This document shows, piece by piece, positions 9,893 through 27,530 of a stretch of 27,651 bases of DNA. Positions within the stretch are counted from its first letter, which is position 1. Every line of letters begins with the position of its first letter. The position numbers and the translations under genes are program-made. The notes under the pieces were generated by a model, which saw nothing but the letters and a program-made list of their open reading frames with translations, made no database searches and was not told the origin of the DNA. Location: positions 1 through 27,651 of the forward strand of contig JALGTJ010000007.1 in assembly GCA_029821415.1 (NCBI GenBank), given 5' to 3'. The DNA comes from Candidatus Zipacnadia bacterium. Its GTDB lineage: Bacteria; Armatimonadota; Zipacnadia; Zipacnadales; Zipacnadaceae.

Positions 9893-10246
9893 TTATTCGA
9901 CCAGTTCAAGGATAGCCATTTCGGCTTGATCCCCGCGGCGCTGGCCGGCACGAATGATACGCGTATAGCCACCGGGGCGCTCAGTGTAGCGCGGCGCGAT
10001 TTGCGTGAACAGGTAATCGACCAAATCCTGATCGTTGATCAATCGCAACACCTGGCGGCGAGCCGCCAGATCACCACGCTTGGCCTTGGTAATAATCTTT
10101 TCGGCTATCGGGGCAGCCTGTTTGGCCTTTACTACTGTAGTCTTTATGCGATTGTGACGCAGCAAGGCATCAACCACTCCCCGTAGTAGAGCCTTGCGCT
10201 GATCACTCGGTCTTCCCAGTTGTTTCCCAGCTTTGCGATGTCGCAT
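9893..10246 (-). CDS. rplQ: 50S ribosomal protein L17
   Basis: MRHRKAGKQLGR...IKTTVVKAK...RPGGYTRII...RRGDQAEMAILELV; start at MRHR (10246). Confidence 0.98.
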   Translation of the reverse strand: MRHRKAGKQLGRPSDQRKALLRGVVDALLRHNRIKTTVVKAKQAAPIAEKIITKAKRGDLAARRQVLRLINDQDLVDYLFTQIAPRYTERPGGYTRIIRAGQRRGDQAEMAILELVE

Positions 10247-10288
10247 TATGTTAACCTCGTAGAGAGTGCTTCCGCGGGTCACCACCCG

Positions 10289-11281
10289 CTATTCGTCCTG
10301 CTCATCCTGATCGGGTTGCGCCAACGAAAGCCCAAACTTGGCCAGCTTCTCGATAACTTGCTCCAGCGAACGTTCGCCGAAATTACCAATTCCCAACAGA
10401 TCCTTCTCTGTATGCGCCACCAGCTCACCGATTGTCTGGATGTTTGACTTCTTCAAACAGTTGAGCGCACGGACGGTCAGATCCAACTCCTCAATGGGCA
10501 GGGCCAGTGTCTTGTCATAGACTTCCGCCTCGGCCTCCTCCAGCTTGGCTTCCGCCTCCTCTTTAGGTACTGCAGCAAAGACGGCCAGATACTCCTGGAC
10601 AATGGCAGCAGCCTGCCGCAGCGCCTCATCAGGCATAACCGTCCCGTCCCCCCATAGCTCCAGAGTCAGCCGGTCCAGGTCGGTACGACCCCCGATGCGT
10701 GTAGGCTCAACATGGTAAGCAACGCGAGGAATCGGTGAGAAAAGCGCATCCACCGGAATGACGTCAATCGGCGTGCTTTGTCGGTCACGCGCCTCCACTG
10801 GTAGGTAACCCTTACCTTCCCTAACCCACATCTCCATATACAGCTTACCATCTTCCTCAGTTATGTCCGCTATGTGTAAATCCGGGTTGACCACTTCCAA
10901 CTCCGGCGGACACTGCACATGTGCCCCGGTTACCTCCTGGGGACCGGTCGCCTCGATAGTTAACTTGTAGCTTGCCTCCTCATCAGCCTCAAGCTGCGGC
11001 CTTACGCCATTGGCCCACCTAATCACCAGCTCTTTGATATTCAATATTAGTTCGGTACTGTCTTCAGCAAGACCGGGAATGGTGCTAAACTCGTGACGTA
11101 CACCTTCGATCCTAATATCAGTAACGGTCAGGCCAGGTAAGTGAGCCAACAGCACTCGTCGAAAAGCATTACCCAAAGTGTGACCGAAACCCCGCTCCAG
11201 CGGCTCTATCGAAAAACGACCGTACTTTTCGTCAAGTTCAAGTATGACAATCTCAGGCTTGACCCCTGCAAGCATATTCAC
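10289..11281 (-). CDS. rpoA: RNA polymerase alpha subunit
   Basis: GRFSIEPLERGFGHTLGNAFRRVLL, HEFSTIPG, VDALFSPI, ELDLTVRALNCLK. Confidence 0.98.
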   Translation of the reverse strand: MNMLAGVKPEIVILELDEKYGRFSIEPLERGFGHTLGNAFRRVLLAHLPGLTVTDIRIEGVRHEFSTIPGLAEDSTELILNIKELVIRWANGVRPQLEADEEASYKLTIEATGPQEVTGAHVQCPPELEVVNPDLHIADITEEDGKLYMEMWVREGKGYLPVEARDRQSTPIDVIPVDALFSPIPRVAYHVEPTRIGGRTDLDRLTLELWGDGTVMPDEALRQAAAIVQEYLAVFAAVPKEEAEAKLEEAEAEVYDKTLALPIEELDLTVRALNCLKKSNIQTIGELVAHTEKDLLGIGNFGERSLEQVIEKLAKFGLSLAQPDQDEQDE

Positions 11282-11367
11282 GACTCCTCACTTGTCGTAT
11301 TCAGCTTCCGCTCAGTTCCTTGTAACAGACGACTGATCACCAAAGCCCTTGGCCACCAGCCGGTCAA

Positions 11368-11997
11368 CTATCGTGAGTAGAACTCCATGACTAACTGTTC
11401 GTCAACGTCCAGGCGAATCTCGTCTCGCTCGGGCAGGCCGAGAATGTCTACAACACGCTCTTCCCGATCTACTTGTAGCCAGCTCAGGCTCTCGCCGGAG
11501 GTGCTAGCCAGGGCTTCCTCAATAGGCTGAAGGTTCTTACTGCCGTTCCTTGCCTCTATACGGTTGCCAACTTTTACCAAATATGAGGGGATATTGACCA
11601 CTTGCCCATCCACCGCGAAATGACGGTGGTTCACCATCTGTCGAGCTTGCGCACGACTGCTGGCCAAGCCGGCTCGATAGATGACGTTGTCCAAGCGTCG
11701 CTCCAGCAGTTGTAGCAGATTGTTTCCGCTGATTCCCGGCATGTTCTCGGCATCACGAACGTAACGCCGAAACTGTTCTTCACTGACGCCATAGATATGG
11801 CGCAGTTTCTGTTTTTCGCGGAGCTGCTTGCTGTAATCACTGACTCGATACCGCCGTGAGCCCTGGCCCCGGTGCCCAGGAGGATAACTCTTACGCTCCA
11901 TAGCACACTTAGGACCATAACAGCGCTGCCCCTTAAGAAATAACTTCTGGCCGGCCCGACGACACAGCCTGCAAACAGGACCGTGTTGCTGGCTCAT
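11368..11997 (-). CDS. rpsD: 30S ribosomal protein S4 (Zn-binding form)
   Basis: CRLCRRAGQKLFLKGQRC...KC, QLREKQK, LLERRLDNVIYR, ARQMVNH, EQLVMEFYSR; ATG 11997 follows GGAGGTGA. Confidence 0.98.
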   Translation of the reverse strand: MSQQHGPVCRLCRRAGQKLFLKGQRCYGPKCAMERKSYPPGHRGQGSRRYRVSDYSKQLREKQKLRHIYGVSEEQFRRYVRDAENMPGISGNNLLQLLERRLDNVIYRAGLASSRAQARQMVNHRHFAVDGQVVNIPSYLVKVGNRIEARNGSKNLQPIEEALASTSGESLSWLQVDREERVVDILGLPERDEIRLDVDEQLVMEFYSR

Positions 11998-12090
11998 TAA
12001 CAACGTTCACCTCCGAATGACAACCTGCCAATCGACAGTTCATCAGCTCTTACGCTCTCAGTTTTTCTTGCATAACACAATCGCAAAGGC

Positions 12091-12483
12091 CTACACCCGG
12101 CGCCGTTTCTTAGGCCGGCATCCGTTGTGGGGGACAGGGGTAACATCCTTGATCTCGCCGATATCAATACCAGCCGCCTGCAGCGCCCGAATGGCAGTCT
12201 CGCGACCCGAACCGGGCCCCTTGGTGAAAACGTCCACCTTGGACATACCAAACTCCTTAGCCTGACGCGCAACGCTCTCCGCGGCCAACTGAGCGGCAAA
12301 GCTAGTGCCTTTTTTTGTCCCGGTGAAGCCAATTGTGCCACCACTAGCCCAGCACAGCGTATTACCTGCAGGATCAGTGATAGTTACAATAGTATTGTTG
12401 TATGTTGATTTGATGCACGCCCGCCCGTAAGGTACTCGTTTGGTGATCTTGCGGCGGCGCGAACTTGTTTGATTGCGACGCAT
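12091..12483 (-). CDS. rpsK: 30S ribosomal protein S11
   Basis: [42 protein letters not shown]. Confidence 0.98.
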
Positions 12484-12531
12484 TGCTCTGCCTCCGTTAA
12501 TAGCTCAACCGGCGAACCCGTGTACCTGACA

Positions 12532-12915
12532 CTATTTAGGTCCTGGTGCCCGCTTCCGACCCGCCACGGTCTTCTTACGCCCCTTGCGAGTGCGGGCATT
12601 GGTCTTAGTCCGCTGTCCCCGAACAGGTAGCCCACGGCGGTGGCGGATGCCGCGGTAGGAGCCAATTTCCATTAACCGCTGGATATGAGCGTGCACCTCG
12701 CGGCGCTTTTTACCTTCGATCGTGTAGTCACGGTCAATGATCTCACGCAGCCGGGCTGCATCTTCTTCACTAAGCTCGTACATTCGGGTGCCAGCGTCAA
12801 TTCCTGCCTTTGCCACTATGGCTTCGGCACTGCTCCGCCCGATACCATAGATATAGGTCAAGGCAATATGGACTGGTTTGTCTCGGGGCAAGTCAACTCC
12901 CGCTATTCTGGGCAC
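12532..12915 (-). CDS. rpsM: 30S ribosomal protein S13
   Basis: [44 protein letters not shown]. Confidence 0.98.
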
Positions 12916-12933
12916 TGTCCATTCCTCCCTGAG

Positions 12934-13047
12934 TTATCCCTGGCGCTGCTTGTGGCGGGGGTTGGAACAAATCACATAGACCCGCCCCCGTCGGCGCACG
13001 ATTTTGCACTTGTCACAACGCTTTTTCACTGAAGCTTGAACCTTCAC
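12934..13047 (-). CDS. rpmJ: 50S ribosomal protein L36 (Zn-binding form)
   Basis: Too short for the ORF track. Manual translation from GTG 13047: [37 protein letters not shown], with GGAGG RBS. Confidence 0.97.
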
Positions 13048-13085
13048 AACAATATCCTCCTCATTATCTGAGACCGGTTACCAAC

Positions 13086-13107
13086 CTTGCCCTCTGTGGA
13101 GGGCAAG
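13086..13107. other. 9-bp perfect inverted repeat between infA and rpmJ (possible mRNA hairpin or weak terminator)
   Basis: CTTGCCCTC-TGTG-GAGGGCAAG; no clear U-tract on the coding strand. Confidence 0.4.
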
Positions 13108-13126
13108 TGGCCCCGAGAAGCATTGG

Positions 13127-13360
13127 TCACTTGTGCAGCCAAGTAATGCGTGCTCGCGTCACATCATACGGCGACAGCTCCACCGTAACCTTATCACCCG
13201 GCAAGATACGAATATAGTTGCTGCGCATCTTGCCGGATAGATGGGCGAGTACCTCGTGCCCATTTTCCAGTTCTACATTGAACTGGGCATTGGGCAATTT
13301 ATCTACTACTCGCCCTATCACGCGAATTTTTTTGTCACGCTTTCCAGTATCCTGAGACAT
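13127..13360 (-). CDS. infA: Translation initiation factor IF-1
   Basis: [45 protein letters not shown]; overlaps the map 3' end by 26 nt. Confidence 0.97.
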
Positions 13361-14162
13361 CCGATAGCAACTTAGCCCCTTCTGCCAGAGTCAAAATTAG
13401 CGGCTCCGAGTCGGTTACCACTACATCATGTTCAAAGTGTGCCGACAGCTCACCGTCGGCTGTGCGCACCGTCCAACCATCCTCTTTATCCACCTGGACC
13501 TGTGCTGTTCCCACATTGACCATCGGTTCGATGGCCAAGACCATTCCCGGCTGCAAAACCAGCTCGTAATCCTCAAACGCTCCTGGACTGTAGAAATTCG
13601 GGATCTGCGGCGGCTCATGCAACTGCTGGCCGATCCCATGTCCTGTCAACTGCCGAACTACGCTATAGCCACGGCTCTCTACATACTCCTGGATAGCCTT
13701 AGAGATCTGCTTCAGCCTATTGCCCGCCCGAGCTTGCGCTATACCTGCCATCAGCGCCCCTTGCGTAGCGTCAAGCAGTCCATGATACTCACCTGGCTGG
13801 CCGACGACAGTAGTGAAGGCGGCGTCGCCATGGTAACCATCGTAGCAGGCCCCCAGGTCAACGCCCACCACTTGCCCCACCTCCAGTACAGTGTCATCAG
13901 GAATTCCATGGACCACCACATCATCAATCTGAATACAGGTCGCCGCAGGATAACCCTGGTATCCCTTAAATGAGGGCAGCGCTCCCCGAGCTCGGATGTG
14001 GGCCTCCGCCAATTTGTCAAGTTCCAATGTAGTCACGCCGGGCGCAATCTGCGCGCGTACCAATTCCAGCGTCTCTCCAACAATCTGCCCAGCAACTTTG
14101 AGCTTCTCCAGCTCCTCTTCTGAGCGCCGCGCCACACGCCGACTGCCGGCTCTCTTAGCCAC
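13335..14162 (-). CDS. map: Methionine aminopeptidase type I
   Basis: [46 protein letters not shown]. Confidence 0.97.
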
Positions 14163-14164
14163 CG

Positions 14165-14830
14165 TCAGTAGGACCGCCTTCCCCGCGCTATCTGTGCAAG
14201 CTCTGCGCTGAGCTGGTGCTGATCCTGCTCAGCATCAACGGTCACGAGCTGGCCGCGCTGTCTATAATACTCAATCAACGGCGCAGAGTCCTGTTTATAA
14301 ACCTTCAGCCGATTACGAATCGCTTCCGGCCGGTCATCACTGCGAAGATAAAGCTCGCCCCCACACTGCGGGCATTTGTCCCCAACATCCAGGCCGTCAC
14401 GGCGGACATTGTATATCGTTCCGCAATCCGGGCACATCCGCCGCCCACTTAGCCGCCGCACTACCTCGGCATCACTGATCGCCAAATTGATCACCAGGGG
14501 CTGCTCGCGACCTACCCTCTCAAACATCGCAGTTAGTGCCTCTGCCTGAGCAATAGTGCGCGGAAAGCCGTCAAGCAGAAAGTGCTCCTCGTCGCCGAGC
14601 TGCTCCATTCGCTCTGCAACCAGACTAATGACCAGACCGTCGGGCACCAGTTCGCCTGCCTCCATGTAGCTTTTCGCCTGTTTGCCCAAGTCACTGCCCT
14701 TAGCTACTGCTGCTCGCAACAGATCTCCAGTGGACAGATGCGTATAGCTCATGTGCGTTTTCAAATACTCGGCATGGGTACCCTTACCGGCTCCCGGTGG
14801 GCCCAACAATATCAGGTCTCGCTGTGCCAT
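14165..14830 (-). CDS. adk: Adenylate kinase (Zn-lid type)
   Basis: GPPGAGKGT, STGDLLR, LDGFPRT, RRMCPDCG...CPQCGGELYLRSDD. Confidence 0.98.
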   Translation of the reverse strand: MAQRDLILLGPPGAGKGTHAEYLKTHMSYTHLSTGDLLRAAVAKGSDLGKQAKSYMEAGELVPDGLVISLVAERMEQLGDEEHFLLDGFPRTIAQAEALTAMFERVGREQPLVINLAISDAEVVRRLSGRRMCPDCGTIYNVRRDGLDVGDKCPQCGGELYLRSDDRPEAIRNRLKVYKQDSAPLIEYYRQRGQLVTVDAEQDQHQLSAELAQIARGRRSY

Positions 14831-14886
14831 TGACTACTTATCCTTTATCACCCACCTCAAGGCCGCCTAAATGTCGTCACTGTCAA

Positions 14887-16230
14887 CTAACCATGCAGGA
14901 AACCACGGTAGTGGCGCATCAGTAGTTGCGCCTCCACCTGCTGCATCGTATCAAGAGCTACCCCGACAATAATCAGCACGGAGGTGCCGCCGACCAGAGT
15001 GAAGGTTTGCACCCCGGTTATCGGCCCCACATAATATTGCATTAGCGCTACGATACCCAGGAAAACGGCCCCGGCCAGAGTAATGCGGTACAGGATCTTG
15101 TCCAAATAGTCCCGAGTCTTCTCGCCAGGCCGGATCCCCGGCACTGCACCGCCGTTCTTCTGCAGGTTCTCGGCAATCTCTTCGGGATTAAAAGTAACTG
15201 CCGTATAGAAATAGGTAAACAGAATTACCAGAACAAAGTACAGAAACGATGCGAAATGATTACTTTGGCTTGGTGTGGTAAAGTTGATTATTGTCTGAAT
15301 AGCGCTGTAGATGCTCTCGTCGGAGAACCCCAAACGGCCAACAAGGTGCACAATCTTGTCGTTCATCAAGAATTGTCCGATTTGCGCCGGAAACATTGCC
15401 ACAGCAATGGCGAAGATAATAGGCATCACGCCCGCCTGGTTGACCCGCAGAGGCAAATAGCTTGTCTGGCCACCGTACACACGGGTGCCTCTGATCCGCT
15501 TGGCATACTGGACCGGAATCTTGCGTTCGGCCTGTTGCACCTTGATAATGCCGTAGATCATCCCTACGAATAGAACCGCCAGGAACAAGATATTACCGAT
15601 GGCGATCTGACCAGCTACAAGCATCTGCACGGTAGTGGCCAACTGCTGGGGCAACGCGGTCATTATGCCCACGAAGATTATCAATGATACGCCCTGGCCG
15701 ATGCCGTATTCGGTGATCTGATCGGCAATATACATCAGAAATAGCCCGCCGGCCACCATCATAATTACATCAAAGACAATAATCATCGGCCCACCCTGGA
15801 ATGCGCCCATGGTGCCGAAGAATCCAATCATTCCAATGCCCTGTATCAGACAGATGCCGACGGTGGTGTACTTGGTCCATTGGCGAATTTTGCGCTGGCC
15901 CCATTCACCCTCTTTTTGCAATTGTTCGAGAGAGGGGACCGCCATCACCAGGAGCTGGAAGATAATTGAGGCGGTGATATAGGGCATTATACCCAGTGCT
16001 AGTATAGAAAATCGCTTTAGTGAGCCACCAGCAAAAGCATTGAGCAACCCGCCGATACCCCCGCCAAATGCCCCAGAGAACAACCGCTCCATAGCCTCCT
16101 TGTTGACTCCCGGCAGAGGCACATGTGCGCAGGCCACGTAGACGCCAAACATCACCATTACGTACAGTATGCGCTTACGCACATCAGGCAGACGCATCGC
16201 CTGGGCCAGGTTGCCAATCCGTTCCTGCAT
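14887..16230 (-). CDS. secY: Preprotein translocase SecY
   Basis: FSILALGIMPYITASIIFQLL, ITEYGIGQGVSLIIF, RKIPVQYAKR, YLPLRVNQAGVMPIIFA, IPGIRPGEKT-like VPGIRPGEKT, GGTSVLIIVGV. Confidence 0.99.
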   Translation of the reverse strand: MQERIGNLAQAMRLPDVRKRILYVMVMFGVYVACAHVPLPGVNKEAMERLFSGAFGGGIGGLLNAFAGGSLKRFSILALGIMPYITASIIFQLLVMAVPSLEQLQKEGEWGQRKIRQWTKYTTVGICLIQGIGMIGFFGTMGAFQGGPMIIVFDVIMMVAGGLFLMYIADQITEYGIGQGVSLIIFVGIMTALPQQLATTVQMLVAGQIAIGNILFLAVLFVGMIYGIIKVQQAERKIPVQYAKRIRGTRVYGGQTSYLPLRVNQAGVMPIIFAIAVAMFPAQIGQFLMNDKIVHLVGRLGFSDESIYSAIQTIINFTTPSQSNHFASFLYFVLVILFTYFYTAVTFNPEEIAENLQKNGGAVPGIRPGEKTRDYLDKILYRITLAGAVFLGIVALMQYYVGPITGVQTFTLVGGTSVLIIVGVALDTMQQVEAQLLMRHYRGFLHG

Positions 16231-16688
16231 CAGTCAATAACCTCCACGGTCCCGCCAGCCGCTTCGATCTTCTCACACGCCGATCTGCTAAAGGCATGAG
16301 CCTTAACATCGAGCTTGCACGACAGCTCGCCATCGCCCAGTATCTTCACCCCATCACCAATCTTGGAGATAAGACCCCTGTCCAGCAGCACTTGCGGCGA
16401 GACTACGCTGCCCTCGTCAAACCGCTCCAGGTCGCGGACATTCACAATCTGATACTCTTTGCGGAATATGCCGATATTCTGAGCCTTGTTGCTCTGCCCC
16501 CGAAGCTTAGGCAAGCGGCGATACAGCGGCGTCTGCCCCCCCTCAAAGCCCGGTTTAACACTCGAGTGCTGCTTCTGGCCCTTCTGGCCACGGCCACAGG
16601 TCTTACCCTGACCGGCACTGATACCGCGGCCCTTGCGCTTGGCCGACTTATGCCTCGCCTTATTTGGCTTCACGTCAGACAAATCCAT
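16230..16688 (-). CDS. rplO: 50S ribosomal protein L15
   Basis: KRKGRGISAGQGKTCGRGQKGQK, GFEGGQTPLYRRLPK, VKILGDGEL, KIEAAGG. Confidence 0.98.
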   Translation of the reverse strand: MDLSDVKPNKARHKSAKRKGRGISAGQGKTCGRGQKGQKQHSSVKPGFEGGQTPLYRRLPKLRGQSNKAQNIGIFRKEYQIVNVRDLERFDEGSVVSPQVLLDRGLISKIGDGVKILGDGELSCKLDVKAHAFSRSACEKIEAAGGTVEVID

Positions 16689-16785
16689 ATTTACTCGCTT
16701 TCCCTCCGTCTGTTTGTTGCCCAGCTCCCCACCAGCGTTTTCTCATCCGACCTCTGACAAATCTGATCGATCCGACTCGGAGAAC

Positions 16786-17160
16786 TCAGAACTTCAAGCC
16801 GGCCTCCCGAGCGGCCTCAGCCAGAGCGGCAACCTTGCCGTGGTAAGGCCAACCCGCCCGGTCAAAGACGACCTGCTGGATGCCCTTGTCAAGTGCTCGT
16901 TTTGCCACAGCCTCACCAACAGCCACGGCAGCGGCAATGTTAGCCGTACCTGATAGCCCCGCGCTGATCTGCTTGTCAAGGGTACTGGCAGCCACCAGCG
17001 TGTGACCGGAAGTGTCATCAATTACCTGAGCATAGATGTGTTTAAGCGACTTGGTGACACACAACCGAGGGCGCTGCGAGGTGCCCCTGATTTTCGCACG
17101 ACCTCGCATCTGCCGCCGGCGTCGAGCTGTTCTTCTGTCTCGTTCTTGACTCACAGTCAA
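16786..17160 (-). CDS. rplR: 50S ribosomal protein L18
   Basis: [48 protein letters not shown]. Confidence 0.98.
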
Positions 17161-17199
17161 CCTTCCTTAACCAGAGTACAGCCCCGCTCGCACGCTTGC

Positions 17200-17763
17200 T
17201 TACTCCACACCGATTTTAGCTTGCTTGCCAGGCTTACGACGGGGCTGCTCGTCAACATATTTGATACCCCGCCACTGCGTTCCCTTTGCCCAATACGGAC
17301 TTACCGGCCCGACTGCCCGAATGTCAGCAGCCATCTGTCCAACCACCTGCTTATCAATGCCCCGTACCACAATCTGATTATTATCGCTAATCTCGATCTC
17401 TGTACCTTCCAGAGGCTCAATGACCACATCGTGGGACAGACCGACATAAAGCCGCAGGTTTTTGCCCTGCATCTGGGCACGATAGCCCACGCCTTGGTAT
17501 TCCAAACGTTTTTCAAAGCCGTTGACCACGCCTGTGACCATATTCGCGACCAAAGCCCTGGCCAGTCCGTGCAGGGCACGGTACTTCTTCTGTTCCGCAG
17601 CCCGGGTAAAGATAATCCGGCCCTCACTAACGGTCGCGCTGATTCCCTCGGGTAGCCGCCGGCACAGCTCTCCCCGTGGTCCCTTGATCGTCACCACGTT
17701 GTCTTTGATGTCAACCTCGACATCATCGGGTATCGTAATTGGCGCTTCACCTATACGCGACAT
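17200..17763 (-). CDS. rplF: 50S ribosomal protein L6
   Basis: MSRIGEAPITIP, VTIKGPRGEL, ALHGLARALVANMVTGV, GVGYRA, GIDKQVVGQ. Confidence 0.98.
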   Translation of the reverse strand: MSRIGEAPITIPDDVEVDIKDNVVTIKGPRGELCRRLPEGISATVSEGRIIFTRAAEQKKYRALHGLARALVANMVTGVVNGFEKRLEYQGVGYRAQMQGKNLRLYVGLSHDVVIEPLEGTEIEISDNNQIVVRGIDKQVVGQMAADIRAVGPVSPYWAKGTQWRGIKYVDEQPRRKPGKQAKIGVE

Positions 17764-17809
17764 ATTCGTTTGCTCCTCAGCGTTTGATCACAAGTGTGTC
17801 TCCGCGGCG

Positions 17810-18205
17810 CTACCACAGCTCACAGATTACCTCTCCACCGGTACCTGCGCGGCGGGCCTGTTTTGCACTCATAACACCTTGACTGGTAGAGACAATAGCT
17901 ATCCCGATACCTCCAAGCACACGAGGCAGTTCGTCTTTGGCCCTATACACTCGTCGGCCAGGTTTACTGACCCGACGGCAGCCAGCCATTACCGGCCGGT
18001 TCTGTTCATCATACTTCAGGCGCAGCCGCAAGTCCCGGCCGTGGTTGACCAGTTGAAAGCCCCGTAGATAGCCTTCTTCATGCAGAATCTTAGCAATGGC
18101 CATTTTCATCTTAGACCTAGGCACATCCACACTGGTACGGCGCGCATTATAGCCATTACGAATACGATTGAGCATATCTGCTATCGGATCGGTTACGACA
18201 CCCAT
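17810..18205 (-). CDS. rpsH: 30S ribosomal protein S8
   Basis: TDPIADMLNRIRN, RVSKPGRRVY, GIAIVSTSQGVMS, GGEVICELW. Confidence 0.98.
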   Translation of the reverse strand: MGVVTDPIADMLNRIRNGYNARRTSVDVPRSKMKMAIAKILHEEGYLRGFQLVNHGRDLRLRLKYDEQNRPVMAGCRRVSKPGRRVYRAKDELPRVLGGIGIAIVSTSQGVMSAKQARRAGTGGEVICELW

Positions 18206-18273
18206 CAGTTACCTCCTGAATCAGCCTGAGCACCTCCATCGCTAGCACCCAGGTCAGCGGTGCCCAGCAGCCA

Positions 18274-18459
18274 CTACCAGCTGGACTTGGTTATCCCAGG
18301 AATGTTACCCGCCAGGGCCTGTTCCCGGAAGCAAATGCGACACAGGCCGAAGCTACGCATATAGCCACGCCGGCGGCCACACAACTGGCAGCGGTTATAG
18401 CCGCGAGTCCTGTACTTAGGCTCTCGCTTCTGCTTGGCAATCCACGATTTTTTCGCCAC
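18274..18459 (-). CDS. rpsZ: 30S ribosomal protein S14, type Z (Zn-binding, 61 aa)
   Basis: MAKKSWIAK...[24 protein letters not shown]...GITKSSW. Confidence 0.98.
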
Positions 18460-18528
18460 GGACTTCTGCCTCCTGGCAGTGGGGTGGTATAGACATATTC
18501 GTCATTGCTGTTACTGAGCGTATCTGCT

Positions 18529-19080
18529 TCATTCAGAGACCAGGGGTAGGCCCAGTGCCTCCAGTAGAGCTATGCCCTGGTCATCAGTTTCGGCAGTAGT
18601 GACGATAGTAATACTTAACCCCCGGGTCTTTTTGACATCATCGTAAGTCAGTTCGGGAAAGATCAGATGATCGTTGATCCCTACGGTATAGTTCCCTCGG
18701 CCGTCAAAACCACTGCGCGGTAGGCCACGGAAGTCGCGGATACGTGGCACCGCAACGTTGAACAGCCGGTCAGCAAACTCCCACATCCGCGCGCCCCGCA
18801 GGGTGGCCTTACAACCGATGGCCTGTCCCTGGCGCACATTAAAGGCGGCTATAGACCGCCGCGCGCGAGTGATACAAGGCCGTTGCCCCACGATCAATGC
18901 CAACTCGTCGACGGCGCTCTCCAAAGCTTCGAAATCATTAGTCGCCTCAGAGACGCCCATGCTCACAACGATCTTCTGAGGCCGGGGTGCCTGCCATATA
19001 TTCCGGTAGCCGAACTGTTTCATCAAAGCCGGCCGAACTTTTTCTTCGTACATAACTTTCAGTCTGGGCTGGTAGGCCAT
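18529..19080 (-). CDS. rplE: 50S ribosomal protein L5
   Basis: PRLKVMY, KIVVSMGV, IAAFNVRQG, RIRDFRG, FDGRGNY, IFPEL; start at MAYQP (19080). Confidence 0.98.
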   Translation of the reverse strand: MAYQPRLKVMYEEKVRPALMKQFGYRNIWQAPRPQKIVVSMGVSEATNDFEALESAVDELALIVGQRPCITRARRSIAAFNVRQGQAIGCKATLRGARMWEFADRLFNVAVPRIRDFRGLPRSGFDGRGNYTVGINDHLIFPELTYDDVKKTRGLSITIVTTAETDDQGIALLEALGLPLVSE

Positions 19081-19163
19081 TTGACTTGCCTGCGCTTTCA
19101 CTGGCCGCCTCCCGGAGCCGCGCCTACGCGCAGCACCAACGGCCCGGCTATAACTGGAGACTA

Positions 19164-19508
19164 CTACTGGTCAATGTCCGCACCACATTTCTTGCACACG
19201 CGCACCCGTGTGCCATCTTCTCGTTGGCGATGGCCGACACGAGTGGGCTTGTTGCAGCTCGGGCAGACCAACATTACGTTAGATACATGGATAGGCCCCG
19301 GGCTTTCAATAATGCCACCCTGGCGGACCTTTTGAGTCTGGCGGACAGCACGCTTCAGGATATTCATGCCCTCCACTATGACCCGCTCTTCTTTGGGCAG
19401 CACCCCAATCACTCGCCCCCGTCGCAAATTGCCCTTGTAAGACCTATCTTTACCGGAAATCACAATGACCTCGTCGTTGGCCTTGATATGCAGCCTCTTC
19501 GCGGACAT
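19164..19508 (-). CDS. rplX: 50S ribosomal protein L24
   Basis: EVIVISGKD, VIVEGMN, GGIIE, IHVSNVMLVCPSC, RVCKKCG. Confidence 0.97.
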   Translation of the reverse strand: MSAKRLHIKANDEVIVISGKDRSYKGNLRRGRVIGVLPKEERVIVEGMNILKRAVRQTQKVRQGGIIESPGPIHVSNVMLVCPSCNKPTRVGHRQREDGTRVRVCKKCGADIDQ

Positions 19509-19877
19509 CTAAACCACCTCGGGCGCCAGAGATATGATCTTTACATGTTCCTTCGCCCGCAGTTCTTGGGCAACGGGACCAAATACGCGGGTACACAATG
19601 GGTTGCCATTCTCATCTACGATTACCGCAGCATTGTCATCGAATCGCACCTGAGTCCCGTCAGGGCGTACTACGCTCTGGCGGCAACGTACTACCACTGC
19701 CCGGACGATATCGCCCTTGTGCACCGGACTTTGCGGGGTAACCTGCTTGGCCGAAGCCACTATCAAGTCGCCTAACGACGCATATTTCCCCCCGCTGCGT
19801 CCAACTATGTTTATGCAGCCAATTTCCCGTACACCAGAGTTGTCAGCCACCCTCAGCCTGGTTTCTTTCTGAATCAT
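19509..19877 (-). CDS. rplN: 50S ribosomal protein L14
   Basis: MIQKETRLRVADNSG, FDDNAAVI, TRVFGPVA, IISLAPEVV; 122 aa from ATG 19877. Confidence 0.98.
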   Translation of the reverse strand: MIQKETRLRVADNSGVREIGCINIVGRSGGKYASLGDLIVASAKQVTPQSPVHKGDIVRAVVVRCRQSVVRPDGTQVRFDDNAAVIVDENGNPLCTRVFGPVAQELRAKEHVKIISLAPEVV

Positions 19878-19937
19878 CGTTACAGCCCTCTTGCGAACTT
19901 GATCGGACTTTCGGCTATTCACATAGTAATGCAGCAG

Positions 19938-22010
19938 TTAACTTCTCTCGCTCTCAGCGACGATGCGTTGCTCAATATCCGGTGGAACAGGTTGATAGTG
20001 AGCGAACTCCATAGTGTAACTGGCACGCCCCTGCGAGAGCGAACGCAGATCCGCCGCATAGGTGCGCATCTCGGCTACTGGAACTAATGCCTTGATCCTC
20101 TGCAGTCCCTTGCCCACAGCATCCATCCCCTGAATCTGACCGCGCCGGCTAGTAATATCACTCATTACATCGCCCATAATGTCCTCAGGCGTAGCCACTT
20201 CAACCGCAGCTACCGGCTCCAGCAGTTTTGACCCGGCTTCTTCCAGAGCCTTGCGCATCGCCAGTTGACCGGCCCTACGAAAAGCCATATCCGACGAGTC
20301 CACCGGGTGCGAACTACCATCATCCAGAGTGACCTGGACGTCAACTACTGGATAGCCAGCCAGTACGCCCGACTCCATTGCATCCTGCACACCCTTTTCA
20401 ACAGCAGGGATGTAGTTGGTGGGCACGGCGCCCCCCTTAATCTCATTGACAAACTTGAAGCCCTCGCCTCGGGGCAGCGGCTCTACCCGGATCCACACAT
20501 CGCCAAACTGCCCCCGGCCTCCGGTCTGTTTCTTATGGCGTCCCTGCACGCGCACCTTTCGAGTTACAGTTTCCCGGTAGGCAATCTGGGGCGGCTTGAG
20601 CGTGACATTGACATCAAACTCATTCTGCAGACGGGTAGTGATGATTTCAACGTGTAATTGTCCCATACCCCGAACAATCAGTTCTCCGGTCTCTCGGTCC
20701 CGCTCGTAGGCGAAACCGACATCTTCGTCAGACAACTGCGCCAATGCACCGGAAAGTTTATCCTGATCGGCACGCGAAGCGGCCTCCAGGGCTACCGCGT
20801 GCATACCACTCGGCAAAGGCGGACAGTCAAATATCACGCTTTCGCGGCCTTGGTAAAGTGTCGTTCCCGTCCGCACCTTTTCCAGCTTGTTGACACAGGC
20901 AATATCACCTGCTGCCACTGTCCCTGCCGAAACCGTTTCACGGCCCTGAACAAAAGCCAGACCACTGAGCTTGGCACTCTCACCGCTCTGTGCGTCGGTG
21001 ATGGGCGCGTCTGCCTGGCCTATCCCGGAGATGGTGCGCAGCAGGCTCAGCCGCCCGACGTATGGATCCAGGATCGTCTTAAATACCACTGCCGCGAATG
21101 GCTGATCCGCTGCCGGAGCTCGGACAATTTCTTCCCCATCTCCCGGCGCATGTCCGTGCCAGGGGCCTCGACTCACCGGCGAAGGCGCCAGTTCAACCAA
21201 TGTCTCGGCCAAACTGGCAACCCCGATTGCCCGGCGGGCATCAGTAGCAAGTACTGGCATAATCAGCCCTCGAGCAACGGCTTTCCGCAGGCCTTCGGCC
21301 AATTCTTCCGCAGTAAGCTCCCCTTCTTCCAGATACCTTATGGTCAACTCATCATCGGTAGTCGCCACCGCATCAACAAGTTGTTCGTAAGCTTGCTCTG
21401 CTGCCTCGCGTAACTCCTCAGGTATATCTCCCCGTTTGACCTCAGTGCCTTGGCCAGTAACCGCTTGCATAGTCAGCAGGTCCACCACGCCCTGGAACTG
21501 CCCTTCGCTGCCGATGGGAAGCTGAATCGGCACGACCTCCGGTCCGGTGAGGCTCTCTGCCAGACTCGCCACCGCACCGTCAAAGCTGGCGCGCTCCTTG
21601 TCTATCTTGTTTACGACGGCAATTACCGGTTGATTGCAATTCCGGGCTGTTTCGAAAACCTTGTAGGTGTGTACCTCCACTCCGGCATTAGCATCAATGA
21701 GTAACACACTACAATCTGCCACCCACAGTGAGGGCACCACCTCGGCAAAGAACTCAGCATAGCCAGGTGTGTCAATAAGATTTATCTTAGTGCCATTGTA
21801 TTCGCAGTAGCAGGCCGCCGGCGAAATGGAGATCTGACGGCTCTTCTCCTCCTCGCCAAAATCACAGGTAGTGGTGCCTTCTTCAACCTGACCCATACGG
21901 CTCTTCATGCCGGTGCTAAACAGCAGCGCCTCGGCCAAGGTGGTCTTACCGCAACCACGGTGGCCAACTATGGCCAGATTGCGAATGTGATCGCTATCGT
22001 ATTGTGGCAC
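19938..22010 (-). CDS. fusA2: Elongation factor G paralogue (EF-G2 / EF-G-like), 690 aa
   Basis: IRNLAIVGHRGCGKTT (G1), RQISI (G2), DTPGYAEF (G3), NKID (G4), KKQTGGRGQFGDV, GGAVPTNYIPAVEKG, HPVDSSDMAF, LLEPV, DLRSLSQGRASYTMEFAHY. Five-domain length with non-canonical G motifs; GGGAGG RBS before GTG. Confidence 0.95.
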   Translation of the reverse strand: MPQYDSDHIRNLAIVGHRGCGKTTLAEALLFSTGMKSRMGQVEEGTTTCDFGEEEKSRQISISPAACYCEYNGTKINLIDTPGYAEFFAEVVPSLWVADCSVLLIDANAGVEVHTYKVFETARNCNQPVIAVVNKIDKERASFDGAVASLAESLTGPEVVPIQLPIGSEGQFQGVVDLLTMQAVTGQGTEVKRGDIPEELREAAEQAYEQLVDAVATTDDELTIRYLEEGELTAEELAEGLRKAVARGLIMPVLATDARRAIGVASLAETLVELAPSPVSRGPWHGHAPGDGEEIVRAPAADQPFAAVVFKTILDPYVGRLSLLRTISGIGQADAPITDAQSGESAKLSGLAFVQGRETVSAGTVAAGDIACVNKLEKVRTGTTLYQGRESVIFDCPPLPSGMHAVALEAASRADQDKLSGALAQLSDEDVGFAYERDRETGELIVRGMGQLHVEIITTRLQNEFDVNVTLKPPQIAYRETVTRKVRVQGRHKKQTGGRGQFGDVWIRVEPLPRGEGFKFVNEIKGGAVPTNYIPAVEKGVQDAMESGVLAGYPVVDVQVTLDDGSSHPVDSSDMAFRRAGQLAMRKALEEAGSKLLEPVAAVEVATPEDIMGDVMSDITSRRGQIQGMDAVGKGLQRIKALVPVAEMRTYAADLRSLSQGRASYTMEFAHYQPVPPDIEQRIVAESERS

Positions 22011-22027
22011 TCAGCTTGCCTCCCGAT

Positions 22028-22222
22028 TCATACATTTGCGCTTGGCTCATCACAGCTATTGTTCTCATCGTGCGCCTTCAGCTTTGTGCTCCGGAGCAGC
22101 ACCTTGCCATACAGAGGATGCCTGGTCCTTCGCTGGATCTCAACCACCACTGTCTTGTCCATCTTGTCACTGACCACCGTTGCCAGGGCCGTCCGCTTCT
22201 CGCCGCTGTGTGTTCTACTCAT
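22028..22222 (-). pseudogene. rpsQ: 30S ribosomal protein S17, C-terminally truncated (about 57 homologous residues plus 7 unrelated)
   Basis: [12 protein letters not shown]...HPLYGK...KAHDENNSC, then DEPSANV*; the conserved GDxVxIxExRPLSKxKxWxL half is absent. Confidence 0.85.
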
Positions 22223-22446
22223 TGATTGATCCCCAACTCCCGCTCGCGCAGAATAGTATTAATCTGAGCGATCGCTTTGCGGTACTTCCTGACCCGCTTC
22301 GGATCGTCAATCTGGCCAGAGGCCAGGCGGAAGCGCAGGTTGAACAGACTCTCCGCAATTTGTCTCTTTCGGTCCTGTAGCTCCTCGCTGCTGGCTCTCC
22401 GCAGTTGGTCAATAAACTGGCGGGTAGTATCAACTGTGTCCGGCAT
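22219..22446 (-). CDS. rpmC: 50S ribosomal protein L29
   Basis: [37 protein letters not shown]; start at MPDTV (22446). Confidence 0.96.
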
Positions 22447-22858
22447 CGTAGTCCCCTCGAGTAACAAACTTACACTTGATCGGCAGTTTGTGGGCAGCTC
22501 GCCGCATCGCCTCGCGAGCGGTCTCCTCGGGTACGCCGCCCATTTCAAACATTATCCGACCAGGCTTGACAACCGCTACATAATAAGCAACCGGTCCCTT
22601 GCCCTTCCCCATTCGTGTTTCGGCCGGCGTCTGAGTAATCGGCTTGTCAGGGAATATCCGAATCCACACCTTCCCTCCCCGGCGAGCCTCGCGGGCCATT
22701 GTCACACGAGCTGCCTCAATCTGCCGGGAATCAATCCAAGCCGGCTCCAGAGCCTGGAGGCCAAACTCGCCAAAATTCACAGTGTTGCCCCGATAAGCTA
22801 ATCCTCGCATCCGCCCTCGGTGCTGCTTAGCATGCTTTAGTCGCTTAGGCATCAACAT
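22430..22858 (-). CDS. rplP: 50S ribosomal protein L16
   Basis: [48 protein letters not shown]. Confidence 0.98.
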
Positions 22859-23864
22859 CTTCAGCTTCCTCCTCGACCGCATCTACCACTATAGCAGGCT
22901 GCGTCTCATCGCTATTGTCAACAGACTCTTCTTCCCCAACAGCTTCTACCGGCTCGGCTGCCTCAACTTCCGTTACTGCCAGCTCCGTTTCTGGTTCGGT
23001 CTCATCGTTAGCACTGTCAGGCTCATCTTCCTCAACAGCCCCCACCGGCTCTGCCGCAGACAACGGGGCCGTCTCAAGCTCTGCTACCTCAGGCTCCGCC
23101 TCTGGCGGAGCAGCCGACAGATCTTCTGCCGCTGCCCCAGCGGTTGGTTCTTCTTCCACCTGCTCCCCATGTTCAATTAGGGCCACCTCCTCTTCCAGCT
23201 CTTCCCAGACATCTCGCTTCTTTTCCTCCTTGGGGGGCAAGATGTCACCCTTATATACCCAGACCTTCACCCCAATGTTACCGTAAGCGGTTCGGGCTTG
23301 AGTGACGCCGAAATCAATGTCCGCCCGCAAGCTCTGCAGTGGAACCGGCCCTTCCGGCCCCATCTTCTCGCGCCGCGCAATTTCTGCCCCGCCTATCCTA
23401 CCAGCAATCTCACAACGTACCCCTCGGGCACCACACTCCAAAGCACGTTCCAGGGCCTGACCCATAGCTCGTCGTGGCGAGACACGCCGCTCGATCTGCC
23501 AGGCAATATTATCAGCCAGCAGTTGCGCACAAGTATCCGGTTGAGCCGTCTCCTCCACATTTACCCGCACCTTTGCCTTAACCATCTTCTGAAGTTGCTG
23601 GCGAAGCCGATCCACATCGCGCCCGCCCCGGCCGATCATAATCCCCGGTCTGGCAGCTTCAATGGTCACCGTTATGCTGTCAGCGGCTCGATCAATAATG
23701 ATATTGGAGATACCGGCATTGCGCTCTCTGTCGCGAATATACTTACGGAGCTTGATATCCTCAATCAGTTGCTGACGGTATTGAGCACCCTCGGCAAACC
23801 AGCGACTACGCGCCTTGCGTACACTGACCAGACGAAAACCGTATGGATGGACTTTTTGACCCAT
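22845..23864 (-). CDS. rpsC: 30S ribosomal protein S3 with ~128-aa acidic C-terminal extension
   Basis: [53 protein letters not shown], then an E/A/D/P/V-rich tail. Confidence 0.98.
22902..23096 (-). repeat. Degenerate tandem duplication (33 and 32 codons) within the S3 acidic tail
   Basis: [33 protein letters not shown] versus [32 protein letters not shown]; in DNA, GTCTCATCG recurs at 22903 and 22999 (period 96 nt) with similar downstream sequence. Confidence 0.8.
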
Positions 23865-23891
23865 TCACGTCACTCCTTATGACCTTGGCCC

Positions 23892-24242
23892 TCAATCAGA
23901 GTCGGCAGCGCTCCCGTCGCTGACGACAACCGTAATGTGACAAGTGGGACGTCGTTGTATATCAGCCCGACCCCGTGCCCTGGGCCGTAGCCGTCGCATA
24001 CGTGGTCCTTCATCAACTACCGCCGTGAGCACAATCATCTCATCGGGATCCATACCATGATTGTTCTCGCCATTGGCTACTGCTGAATTCAGACAGTTCA
24101 GAACGTCGGCCGCTGCCGGCGACGACTGCACCTCCAGGATTGCCCGTGCCTCATTTGCGGTGCAACCCCGAATCAGATCAATGAATTTACGGGCCTTCTG
24201 GGGCCCACGGCGTACCCATTTTGTTACTGCGCGAGCTTCCAT
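23892..24242 (-). CDS. rplV: 50S ribosomal protein L22
   Basis: MEARAVTKWVR, LNSAVANGENN, VVDEGP, RPRARGRA, CHITVVV. Confidence 0.97.
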   Translation of the reverse strand: MEARAVTKWVRRGPQKARKFIDLIRGCTANEARAILEVQSSPAAADVLNCLNSAVANGENNHGMDPDEMIVLTAVVDEGPRMRRLRPRARGRADIQRRPTCHITVVVSDGSAADSD

Positions 24243-24282
24243 TGTTCAATTCTCCCCACATCTGTTCAAGCCAGTGAAGCGG

Positions 24283-24612
24283 TTACTCTACCGCGGTCCC
24301 TGGTGCCAAACGTCGGGGCCCCTCGTGGGCTCCCTCCTCCCCAGGGCGAGCGCGCCGTCGGCGCATCCCGCGGAAGGTGCGAGTACCGGCAAATTCGCCA
24401 AGCTTGTGCCCGACCATATTCTCGGTAATATATACCGGAACATGCCTGCGGCCGTCGTAGACAGCTATAGTATGGCCAATCATCTCCGGGAAGATCGTTG
24501 ACCGCCGCGACCAGGTCCGGATAGTTTGCTTGTCACCGGTGGCGTTCATTTGCTCCACCTTCGCCATTAGTTTCTCGTCAACAAAAGGTCCTTTCTTCGT
24601 TGATCGCGGCAT
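24283..24612 (-). CDS. rpsS: 30S ribosomal protein S19 with atypical extended C-terminus
   Basis: [41 protein letters not shown]; AGGAGG RBS. Confidence 0.97.
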
Positions 24613-24635
24613 CACACAGCCTCCTATGACATCAA

Positions 24636-25472
24636 CTACCGTCGGGCACGGCGCTGTCGAACAATGTACTTATTCGACGGTTTTTTCGGATTACGAGTTA
24701 TCTTGCCTAAAGTCTTCTTGCCCCAGGGACTCAGAGGGCTCGGATGGCCCACCGGCGCCTTACCTTCGCCGCCGCCGTGAGGATGATCCACCGGATTCAT
24801 CGCTGAGCCGCGCACATGCGGGCGCCTGCCACGCCAGCGCGCCCGCCCGGCCTTGCCATCACTTACGTTGATATGATCAATATTGCTCACGCGCCCAATG
24901 GTCGCTCGGCACGAGGTAGGCACCAGGCGAACTTCGCCCGACGGTAGATTCAGGTGCACATAGTTACCCTCGCGGGCTGCAACACGCGCGCCCGATCCAG
25001 CACCCCGAGCTATTTGGCCACCTCGGCCGGGCTGCAGCTCAACATTATGGACAACCGTACCCACCGGAATCCGTCCCAACGGCAGGCAGTTGCCTGGGCG
25101 AATTGGCACCGCCTCCCCGGAGACGACCGAGCTACCCTTCGCCAATCCCTGAGGAGCCAAAATGTAACGCTTCTCGCCATCCATGTAGTGAAGCAGAGCC
25201 AAATGGGCCGAACGGCCCGGATCATACTCAATAGCCGCCACTTTCGCCGGAATATTGTCCTTGTCACGCTTGAAATCCACCAGGCGAATTCGGCGCTTGT
25301 GCCCGGCGCCACGGTGGCGGGAGGTAACACGTCCGGCGGCGTTACGTCCCGCGCTTTGTTTGCGCTGAATAGTCAACCTTTTCTCGGGTCGCTTGTCATC
25401 CAGGTCGGACCTATCCAGCGATACGTAGCCACGGCGGCCTGCTGTCACTGGTTTATGTTCTTTGACGGGCAT
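24636..25472 (-). CDS. rplB: 50S ribosomal protein L2
   Basis: [41 protein letters not shown]; start at MPVKE (25472). Confidence 0.99.
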
Positions 25473-25513
25473 CGTCTTCTTCCTCACTCTCGCAGCTACT
25501 TCAGCTACATTGG

Positions 25514-25825
25514 CTAACCTTGAACCAGTTCAATCTGGTCGCCAGGCGCTAATGTGACTATAGCCTTCTTGACTCGCGCAGTCTTACCGGTGCGATGACG
25601 ATAGCTGCGCTGGCGAGTCTTGCCCTTGATATTCATAGTGTTTACCTTCACTACACGCACATCGAACAGTGCTTCAATGGCAGAACGAATCTGCACCTTA
25701 TTAGCGTCGGAGCGCACCACAAAGTGGTACTTGTTCTCTCGCTCGGCCTGTTCCATGGCCTTCTCCGTGATGATGGGAGAGCGAATGATATCGCGATATT
25801 CTTCAATCTGCTCAGGCAGTTGCAT
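25514..25825 (-). CDS. rplW: 50S ribosomal protein L23
   Basis: [36 protein letters not shown]. Confidence 0.97.
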
Positions 25826-26459
25826 CTATATCGCCTCCTGCGCCCATCTCTTCCAAAGCCTGGCGGGTTACAATGATATGATCAGCCCATAGCACATCGC
25901 GGACGCTGAAATGTGGTACCTCGCGCATGACCAGATCAGGAATATTGCGTGAGCTATAATAGATATACTGGTCCAGATACTCATCCTCGCTTAATAACAT
26001 CAGCACGTGCCCTGTGCAGCGTAGAGCAGCCAGCATCTCCACAATAGTCTTAGTGCGAATCTCCTCAACGATAATCTCATCAACGACCACAACGTTGCCC
26101 ACTGCTGCCTGGGCCGACAAGGCGCTCTGTAGGGCCTTTCGCCGCATCTTCTTGGGCAACCTGACTCTCCTGCTTTCACTCCGCGGGCCATGAGCCTTGC
26201 TGCCTCCAACGAATATCGGCGCACTCCTCGCCCCATGGCGAGCCCGACCCGTACCCTTCTGGCGATACCACTTGGCCGTAGTCAGCTTGATCTCCGAACG
26301 GGTCTTGGTGCTCCTGTTTTTCTGCCTACGCTTGTGGTCTACCGTCACCAATGCCTGATGAATCAAGTCATTGTGTAACGGCGCGGCAAACCATTCGTCA
26401 CTGACTTGCAGCTCGCCCACCTTTGTACCCTTCATATCATTTACTGCCATGCTCGGCAT
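25812..26459 (-). CDS. rplD: 50S ribosomal protein L4
   Basis: [38 protein letters not shown]. Confidence 0.98.
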
Positions 26460-26466
26460 GAGCGGC

Positions 26467-27114
26467 TCATTCCTTTGCTGATTTCTTTGTGGGCCGGATG
26501 ATCACCAGACCGCCGTTCGGACCCGGAATACCGCCCTTAATAAGTAACACGTTCTCTTCAGGGTCAACTGCGACCACAGTCAAGCCCTGGATCGTGACTC
26601 GCTTATTGCCCATGTGACCAGGCATTCTCGTCCCTGGGAAGATACGCTGAGCATCGGTGGCCCCTGCTGACTGCAGACTCCGATGTACCTTTGAGCCGTG
26701 ACTGGCCGGGCCACCGTGAAATCCATATCTCTTCATAACACCCGCAAACCCTCGCCCCTTTGACCGACCTGTCACATCCACCCGCTCGCCCTCACTGAAC
26801 AGCTCAACAGTAAGCTCCTGACCCTCTTGGTATTCTTCGTCAGCATCTACGCGAAATTCGGCCAGATACCGGAGCGGTGCAATGCCCCGGCTTTCAAAAT
26901 GACCGCTCAATGGACTGTTAGTGCGACGCCGGCTGCGCCGCTCAAATCCAACCTGAACCGCTTCATAACCGTCTGTCGCTCCAGTCTTGCGTTGCACCAC
27001 GGTACACGGCCCAGCCTGCACGACCGTCACCGGGATAGCCTCACCCTCCTCAGTGAATATGCGTGTCATACCAACCTTCTTGCCTAACAATCCTACTGGC
27101 ATTTCATTCACCAT
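26467..27114 (-). CDS. rplC: 50S ribosomal protein L3
   Basis: GLLGKKVGMT, DGYEAVQVGF, VDVTGRSKGRGFAGVMKR, MPGHMG, LLIKGGIPG. Confidence 0.98.
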   Translation of the reverse strand: MVNEMPVGLLGKKVGMTRIFTEEGEAIPVTVVQAGPCTVVQRKTGATDGYEAVQVGFERRSRRRTNSPLSGHFESRGIAPLRYLAEFRVDADEEYQEGQELTVELFSEGERVDVTGRSKGRGFAGVMKRYGFHGGPASHGSKVHRSLQSAGATDAQRIFPGTRMPGHMGNKRVTIQGLTVVAVDPEENVLLIKGGIPGPNGGLVIIRPTKKSAKE

Positions 27115-27153
27115 TTTATGTCTCGGACCCAGCCGGGGCCTCAGCCGACTATG

Positions 27154-27474: not shown

Positions 27475-27530
27475 AACAACCTCGCTTCGCGCATGCACCG
27501 ACGAGATCTCCGGTGCGCAGCTCTAACTGG

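Follow-up and report, generated by a model that had tools for sequence, protein, structure and literature searches.

The window, i.e., the whole 27,651-nt stretch of DNA analysed here, is one contig of a Candidatus Zipacnadia (Armatimonadota) metagenome-assembled genome (MAG; labelled G000, 326 contigs, 1.9 Mb, 67% complete), and Pfam scans placed an S10-spc-alpha ribosomal-protein cluster on its minus strand. The cluster reads S10, L3, L4, L23, L2, S19, L22, S3, L16, L29, S17, an EF-G paralogue, L14, L24, L5, and S14, followed by S8, L6, L18, L15, SecY, Adk, Map, IF1, L36, S13, S11, S4, RpoA, and L17. All 25 further cluster genes scanned from S10 to L17, including L36, matched Pfam families, and S5 and L30 are the sole expected members absent from the window. 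Compared with a canonical spc operon, all other genes are present in canonical order and on one strand, while rpsE and rpmD are absent between rplR and rplO and the EF-G paralogue is inserted between rpsQ and rplN; the canonical arrangement, with both rpsE and rpmD between rplR and rplO, was found neither in the window nor in the loci of its class. The features around the empty slot are as follows.

9893..27498, minus strand: S10-spc-alpha cluster (Pfam scans), complete apart from S5 and L30
17200..17763, minus strand: rplF (L6), upstream neighbour of rplR; PF00347 E 9e-33
16786..17160, minus strand: rplR (L18), 124 aa; PF00861 E 5.3e-46; TIGR00060 140.6 bits, cut-off 87.85
16689..16785, minus strand: L18-L15 spacer of 97 nt, seen in the sequence, the slot of rpsE and rpmD in other bacteria
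16675..16746, minus strand: 23-aa ORF from ATG 16746, present in the sequence and marked by an earlier reading
16230..16688, minus strand: rplO (L15), 152 aa; PF00828 E 2.8e-20; TIGR01071 144.7 bits, cut-off 77.95
14887..16230, minus strand: secY, downstream neighbour of rplO; PF00344 E 2e-104

With rplR ending in TGA at 16786-16788 and rplO starting with ATG at 16688, both coordinates and profile searches agree with an earlier, sequence-only reading of this DNA that just 97 nt, holding neither S5 nor L30, separate the two genes. The spacer is an ordinary intergenic stretch with a purine-rich ribosome-binding stretch ahead of the rplO start. It holds no promoter-like or terminator-like site, its folding z is +1.09 (172 of 200 shuffles fold at least as well), and no Rfam 15 match at E up to 1 was obtained on either the L18-L15 locus or the S5 locus. 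Among six same-genus genomes, mean column identity in the spacer is 54%, with indels, and only the last ~15 nt before the rplO start, a purine-rich AAAG-GA stretch, are conserved. Because the spacer is so poorly conserved and carries indels within the genus, we judge the 23-aa ORF to be spurious: the frame exists at ATG 16746, as had been noted, but is not credible as a gene. rplO would remain on the operon transcript and be read via the purine-rich ribosome-binding stretch.

The missing rpsE lies elsewhere in the genome. A six-frame search with the S5 N-domain profile found one match in the 67%-complete genome, on contig C236, and none in the window, giving the following features.

G000:C236:5879-6646 (equal to L001:970-1737), minus strand: rpsE (S5), outside the window, from the six-frame PF00333 search
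about C236:6672-6691, minus strand: leader hairpin of rpsE, GCCUCCC-AUGC-GGGAGGC
about C236:6697-6702, minus strand: -10 box of rpsE, TAGAAT, with TG before it
about C236:6720-6725, minus strand: -35 box of rpsE, TTGACA

The C236 gene encodes a bona fide, ordinary uS5: its TIGR01021 score is 181.5 bits (cut-off 164.05), with the alignment spanning profile positions 2-156 of 156, and its two Pfam domains are PF00333 (residues 15-79, E 8e-23) and PF03719 (residues 91-161, E 4e-26). Since it is the sole S5 gene of this 67%-complete genome, we regard it as the functional gene and not an extra paralogue. Wherever S5 was matched (in 67 class and 100 phylum-sample genomes, i.e., 167 genome rows), exactly one copy was found, so the suggestion that S5 might be duplicated fails, and the suggestion that it might be divergent holds only to a moderate degree. 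The central proposal of the sequence-only reading, that S5 had been relocated and put under separate control, is borne out: rpsE is present once, stands alone on a different contig, and has a promoter-like site and a leader of its own. The profile search it had called for in the rest of the genome returned S5 once, on C236, and no L30. On C236, rpsE is convergent with an aldo/keto reductase gene and has ~850 nt without a long ORF upstream. Synteny across 21 rpsE loci holds within genera only (a tsaD-like gene and one other), with no partner gene travelling with rpsE across the class at these loci; since no neighbour is common to the class, rpsE has acquired no new operon partner.

How far the move reaches was assessed in a phylum sample of 101 genomes (S5 in 100, L18 in 101) and a class sample of 71 genomes at ≥80% completeness, plus G000 (S5 in 67, L18 in 69). 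S5 and L18 lay on different contigs, a result that gives no distance because most genomes are fragmented MAGs, in 66/66 class-sample genomes having both, including a 7-contig, 100%-complete genome with S5 on its C5 and L18 on its C1, and in 8/8 such genomes of the window's class in the phylum sample, whereas in the other classes of the phylum the two genes shared one contig, at most 841 nt apart, in 92/92 genomes. The order L6-L18-S5-L30-L15 was present in 20/20 other-class loci, with SecY within the fetched stretch in 19. Across 36 class loci, the gene after L18 was L30 or L15 at a gap of 18-497 nt and S5 was never between, so that the comparison of gene order in sister genomes, which had been put forward as a check, found the S5-less junction in class relatives as well. 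The closest named public records to the C236 S5 are MAGs labelled Armatimonadia or Armatimonadota, and more distant S5 matches (Firmicutes, Delongbacteria) have the canonical gene order. The S5 move is an old inherited trait of the whole class.

An assembly or binning artefact, in which rpsE-rpmD was dropped from the contig or the S5 contig came from another organism, would find some footing in the fragmented and incomplete state of this MAG and in the length of C236 (just 8.3 kb), and yet its probability is practically negligible. We compared Logan contigs of runs X1-X4 at the junction, where X1, X3, and X4 represent three studies and X1 may be the source sample. Contigs of these three runs cross 16689-16785 unchanged, extending at least 31 nt beyond it in both directions and free of indels, joints, and loose ends, while X2 contigs have a low-coverage hole that leaves 16705-16750 uncovered; at the level of assembled contigs, the check that had been suggested for this interval revealed nothing amiss in X1, X3, and X4. 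Greater weight goes to separate assemblies of relatives with the same arrangement: the L18-L15 junction is identical in arrangement in six same-genus assemblies, the 36 class loci show an S5-less L18-L15 or L18-L30-L15 junction, and S5 is off the L18 contig throughout the class sample, even in the genome with seven contigs. The S5-less junction is beyond chance because it recurs in every class genome examined. As for binning, the nearest rows to G000 are same-genus genomes in both an S5 tree and an L6+L18+L15 tree, and the G+C content of C236 (55.0%) compares with 56.7% for the genome. The deletion during assembly that had been offered as an alternative is therefore rejected, given the contigs of X1, X3, and X4 that bridge the spacer and the agreement of the six same-genus assemblies.

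L30 has had a different and later history. PF00327 gave no match over the gathering score in the 67%-complete genome itself, while it was found in 18/31 relatives and, as a control, in 13/14 reference genomes. Its distribution among relatives is sharply structured: L30 is found in 0/8 genomes of genus g1 (G000 included), 0/2 of g2, and 0/3 of g3, i.e., 0/13 in total at 67-95% completeness (four at 92-95%), and in 4/4 genomes of g4, a sister genus in the same family, and 14/14 from six other families of the order. Genomes that have L30 carry it between L18 and L15, and in 9/9 loci from g1-g3 this slot is assembled and empty, at 18-139 nt and, in one genome, 284 nt. That exception, a g3 locus (L033, G012:C9), has its 284-nt gap without detectable L30 where a congener has 18 nt, and may hold a decayed remnant or an insertion.

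That L30 persists unrecognized, being too divergent for detection or lying in unassembled or unbinned DNA, gains something from the small size of the protein (~60 aa) and from the incompleteness of the g1-g3 genomes, but is highly improbable, given that the same profile recovered L30 in 18/18 genomes outside g1-g3 and 0/13 inside and that the canonical slot was assembled and empty in every g1-g3 locus. Nor did tblastn with 12 class L30 proteins reveal a relic in g1-g3 spacers or the G000 genome beyond chance-level matches, the best match in the latter being E 0.007 over 36 aa. L30 is lost, not moved, only in a sub-clade of three genera, g1-g3, which includes the genus studied here, and the loss is later than the S5 move and confined to part of one family. 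The earlier statement that rpmD is missing from the cluster therefore stands, while relocation does not apply to L30. The loss may have been one event or two, because g1-g3 are not clearly one clade in small trees. The class has kept L18-L30-L15, and rpmD was then lost in g1-g3, leaving the 97-nt spacer seen here. According to the passages of PMC3353972 that treat L30, the protein is missing in 145/995 bacterial genomes, including cyanobacteria, and in chloroplasts, through independent losses. The present case resembles known losses in that L30 is not found and the flanking rplR and rplO are intact, and differs as a further, shallow loss within one Armatimonadota family. It adds an L30 loss that is dated and shallow, next to a sister genus that still has the gene.

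Trees of 43 genomes were used to consider where the moved gene came from. In the S5 tree, the 18 class sequences group as a single clade (SH-aLRT 99) whose stem measures 0.74 changes per site, whereas in the L6+L18+L15 tree of the same genomes the class is not one clade, and the stem of its largest clade (17/18 rows, with G080 outside) is 0.11 (97). S5 evolves slowly inside the class, as seen from the end branch of G000 (0.028 versus 0.12), and only three class-specific positions depart from a residue conserved elsewhere (N23D, V98I, and T144C). Identity of the C236 S5 is 39-53% to other Armatimonadota classes and 42-49% to records from Firmicutes or Delongbacteria. When 1.84 billion representative proteins were searched, the best matches stood at 72%, 68%, and a partial 70%, and thereafter at most at 55% identity and at most 174 bits, with no donor lineage visible among these proteins. 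The class clade in the S5 tree joins an unresolved polytomy with other Armatimonadota classes and one of five outgroup rows, the other four falling outside.

In our reading of these patterns, the gene descended vertically and went through a burst of change at about the time of the move. Xenologous displacement, in which a solitary rpsE arrived from outside the phylum by horizontal transfer and the native in-operon copy was then deleted, would account for the long S5 stem relative to that of the largest class clade in the L6+L18+L15 tree and for an identity to other Armatimonadota classes no higher than that to Firmicutes or Delongbacteria, and transfer is among the routes described for this operon cluster in passages of PMC8046335. 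However, the drop to at most 55% identity without a visible donor, the polytomy shared with other Armatimonadota classes to the exclusion of four of five outgroup rows, and the mere three signature substitutions between the class and others make it, in our estimate, quite improbable. The likely route to the moved gene would be that rpsE was duplicated, either internally or with a copy supplied by a close relative, and that the copy inside the operon was then deleted, as passages of PMC8046335 describe for rpmJ, rpsN, rplJL, and secY, where a duplicate arises and the in-cluster copy is deleted. Our case is like those in that an essential gene is gone from the cluster, a functional copy exists elsewhere, and the neighbours are untouched; it differs in that the gene is rpsE, with 0 occurrences in the main text of that source, and in that no second copy is seen in the 167 genome rows and the state is fixed across a whole class.

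The S5 protein of G000 has 255 aa, of which ~90 residues after the conserved core form a tail with 37 acidic (D/E) and 3 basic (K/R) residues. Tails of this acidic kind, 29-132 aa long, occur in 26/28 class sequences and are absent in two members of other orders, so the tail is not strictly tied to the move; we can only speculate that the 3' end of rpsE was freed to grow after leaving a tightly packed operon. In the window, S3 (22845-23864, minus strand; 339 aa) has Pfam domains to residue 203 and then a strongly acidic tail of ~135 aa that resembles that of the moved S5. S3 lines the mRNA entry site of the 30S subunit together with S5, and their tails might therefore have related functions.

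Upstream of rpsE, G000 carries TTGACA, 17 nt that end in TG plus one base, and TAGAAT, and six bases on lies the hairpin, followed 3' by 10 nt, AGGAGG, another 10 nt, and a TTG start. Within 200 nt upstream of the class rpsE genes, we searched for a promoter pattern (TTGACN-N17/18-TAnnnT) and for a hairpin defined as a perfect stem of ≥6 bp with ≥5 G-C pairs. The promoter pattern occurs in 56/68 class genomes, 53 of these with TG before the -10 box, and is absent from this interval in 12/68, which include families f7 (3/3) and f8 (4/4). The hairpin follows in 50/56 genomes with the promoter, 5-20 nt past the -10 box (5-12 nt in 49), and is absent in the other 6/56. As a background for these counts, the same hairpin test was positive in 107/2000 random windows of the G000 genome (5.4%) and after 3/44 look-alike promoters, with a stem directly after the -10 box only at rpsE. 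Transcription is expected to start ~7 nt past a -10 box, and the hairpin is predicted to lie at this start. The motif CCTCCC...GGGAGG occurs twice in the 1.9-Mb genome; its other copy, at about 4404 of C257, has an A-run on one side and a T-run on the other, which gives it the look of a bidirectional terminator.

Stem sequences vary along family lines. Families f1, f4, and f5 have GCCUCCC/GGGAGGC, and part of f4 has GCUUCC paired with GGAAGC or GGGAGC; each of the 14 f6 genomes has GCCCCCG(G)/(U)CGGGGGC, f2 shows G/C variants, and GCCGCCU/GGGCGGC occurs in a different order. A C-rich 5' arm faces a G-rich 3' arm in almost every row, and loops vary in length and sequence. Covariation was scored on 50 rows aligned from locus references, without dropping rows and with the roughly seven misaligned rows counted as unpaired. 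Both-side changes occur in 5/7 stem pairs (e.g., U-A 27 vs C-G 16; C-G 21 vs G-C 14), the covariation score of 0.350 compares with 0.170 in shuffles and was reached by 0/500, and 40 cells changed on both sides against 13.3 expected. Pairing stands at 95%, a figure that is partly circular because hairpins were pre-selected as perfect stems, and falls to 46-64% when the partner is slid by 1-3 columns. The compensatory changes amount to few independent events because they are concentrated in few lineages, such as the 14 f6 genomes, and it is with these qualifications, pre-selected stems and few events, that the leader shows a conserved 5' structure with covariation. A first MAFFT leader alignment with RNAalifold had misaligned the hairpins and predicted 4 pairs, and a covariance model from 7 close relatives (R1) was too sequence-specific and also matched the antisense of the palindromic stem. 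No such hairpin was found near the in-operon rpsE of other classes, where the narrow R1 model gave one 12-bit match in 20 loci. In part of f4 (e.g., L065, L078, L106, and L111), promoter and hairpin lie 146-168 nt before the estimated start, with frames of up to 329 aa, which suggests either an N-terminal extension of S5 or a long leader.

These elements suggest that rpsE has a transcript to itself, made from an extended -10 promoter close to consensus (TTGACA-N17-TAGAAT, TG preceding the -10 box), and is translated from the AGGAGG site and TTG start, so that the predicted mRNA would start with a conserved G+C-rich stem-loop. In E. coli, translation of the genes from rpsN to rplO is coupled to that of rplE, which S8 represses, as the account of this operon in PMC3616713 has it. 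A solitary rpsE, as distinct from its canonical spc counterpart, cannot be translationally coupled to such an S8-controlled chain, and its output must therefore be set otherwise; the hairpin would act in cis, specifically for rpsE, to set how much the uncoupled gene produces. We consider it a candidate new regulatory RNA with a putative function. Two other assignments were discarded. An intrinsic terminator does not fit a stem without a U-run that in G000 is followed by CTATCTTGTAAAGG and sits between the promoter-like site and the rpsE ribosome-binding site, with upstream neighbours that vary between genomes, and a switch pairing the C-rich arm with the true ribosome-binding site was dropped since the f6 arm GCCCCCG has no partner near the start. 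Among the runs matching the stretch, none is listed as an RNA dataset.

As to what the hairpin does, we tentatively favour a 5'-terminal stem-loop that protects the mRNA, a reading that falls a little short of even in our estimate and is favoured because of the fixed place at the predicted 5' end and the freely varying loop; protective stem-loops are known to require a place at the very 5' end of a bacterial mRNA. Second to it comes an autoregulatory operator, in which excess free S5 would bind the 5' stem-loop of its own mRNA and lower translation or stability, replacing the S8-coupled control lost on leaving the spc operon. The restriction of the hairpin to rpsE (50/56 class promoters versus 3/44 look-alikes and 5.4% of random windows) would suit such an operator, as would a stem kept in sequence, beyond pairing, across f1, f4, and f5, with strand asymmetry and varying loops. 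In addition, the N-domain of S5 is reportedly homologous to double-stranded-RNA-binding domains. On the other hand, a stem of 6-11 bp with a freely varying loop is a small target, a fixed place at the predicted 5' end suits a protective stem-loop equally, and f7 and f8 are without the element. We know of no organism in which S5 acts as a repressor, nor of any S5-binding leader. Solitary ribosomal-protein genes are often self-regulated via leader structures, according to passages of PMC3616713, which lends the operator some plausibility; on balance we regard it as possible but doubtful, and what is left of our expectation goes to some other role. The rpsE leader shares with the autoregulatory leaders in passages of PMC3616713 a conserved 5' structure with compensatory changes, and differs in matching no Rfam family. 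On the same points, the comparison extends to the 5'-terminal protective stem-loops of bacterial mRNAs.

Taken as a whole, the explanation that we consider very probable comprises a solitary, class-wide rpsE, a later L30 loss in g1-g3, an own promoter, and an rpsE-specific hairpin as cis element. A more far-reaching version, in which rpsE gained its own unit in the class ancestor, with an extended -10 promoter and an S5-bound operator that would be the first S5-specific leader and would replace S8 control, and in which the ribosomes of three genera would run without L30, strikes us as rather unlikely. Removal of a single essential gene from the cluster and loss of L30 are of kinds already known; new are rpsE as the gene concerned, its fixation over a whole class, and the conserved rpsE-specific leader that goes with it. 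No description of rpsE outside the spc operon in Armatimonadota was found in the largely open-access literature searched, and the ribosomal protein and operon passages of the Fimbriimonas genome paper (PMC4072686) hold nothing on rpsE placement.

Genomic changes like this move are rare, the gene order concerned being among the most conserved in bacteria, and because the move is fixed in the whole class, it can serve as a clean class marker (66/66 versus 0/92 genomes). It is also a natural experiment in which an essential small-subunit protein is uncoupled from operon-level control, and the restoring of balance is directly testable because a conserved rpsE-specific leader hairpin exists. For genome-resolved metagenomics there is a practical side as well: because MAGs of this class carry S5 on a separate contig, often a short one, binning can miss the gene (4/71 class genomes gave no S5 match), and this lowers completeness estimates and breaks single-contig ribosomal-protein sets.

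Other observations concern the window and its surroundings. The EF-G paralogue inside the cluster (19938-22010, minus strand; 690 aa), between rpsQ (S17) and rplN (L14), scores 858 bits on the EF-G subfamily model NF009381, is under the cut-offs of TIGR00484 and the EF-G2 model, and is 38% identical to a second EF-G on C299. It is present in 31/31 relatives of the order and, in most relatives with a known L18 place, shares a contig with L18, a few kb away (the contig is a different one in G005 and G026). At the window end, 27499-27651 (minus strand) holds the 3' end of a gene that we read as tuf (EF-Tu) from its translated sequence, directly upstream of rpsJ (S10) and with no fusA between them, so that the usual str-operon order rpsL-rpsG-fusA-tuf is not seen here. 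Finally, the runs holding 16300-17200 (X1-X15) are labelled as hydrothermal vent, marine, or sediment metagenomes.
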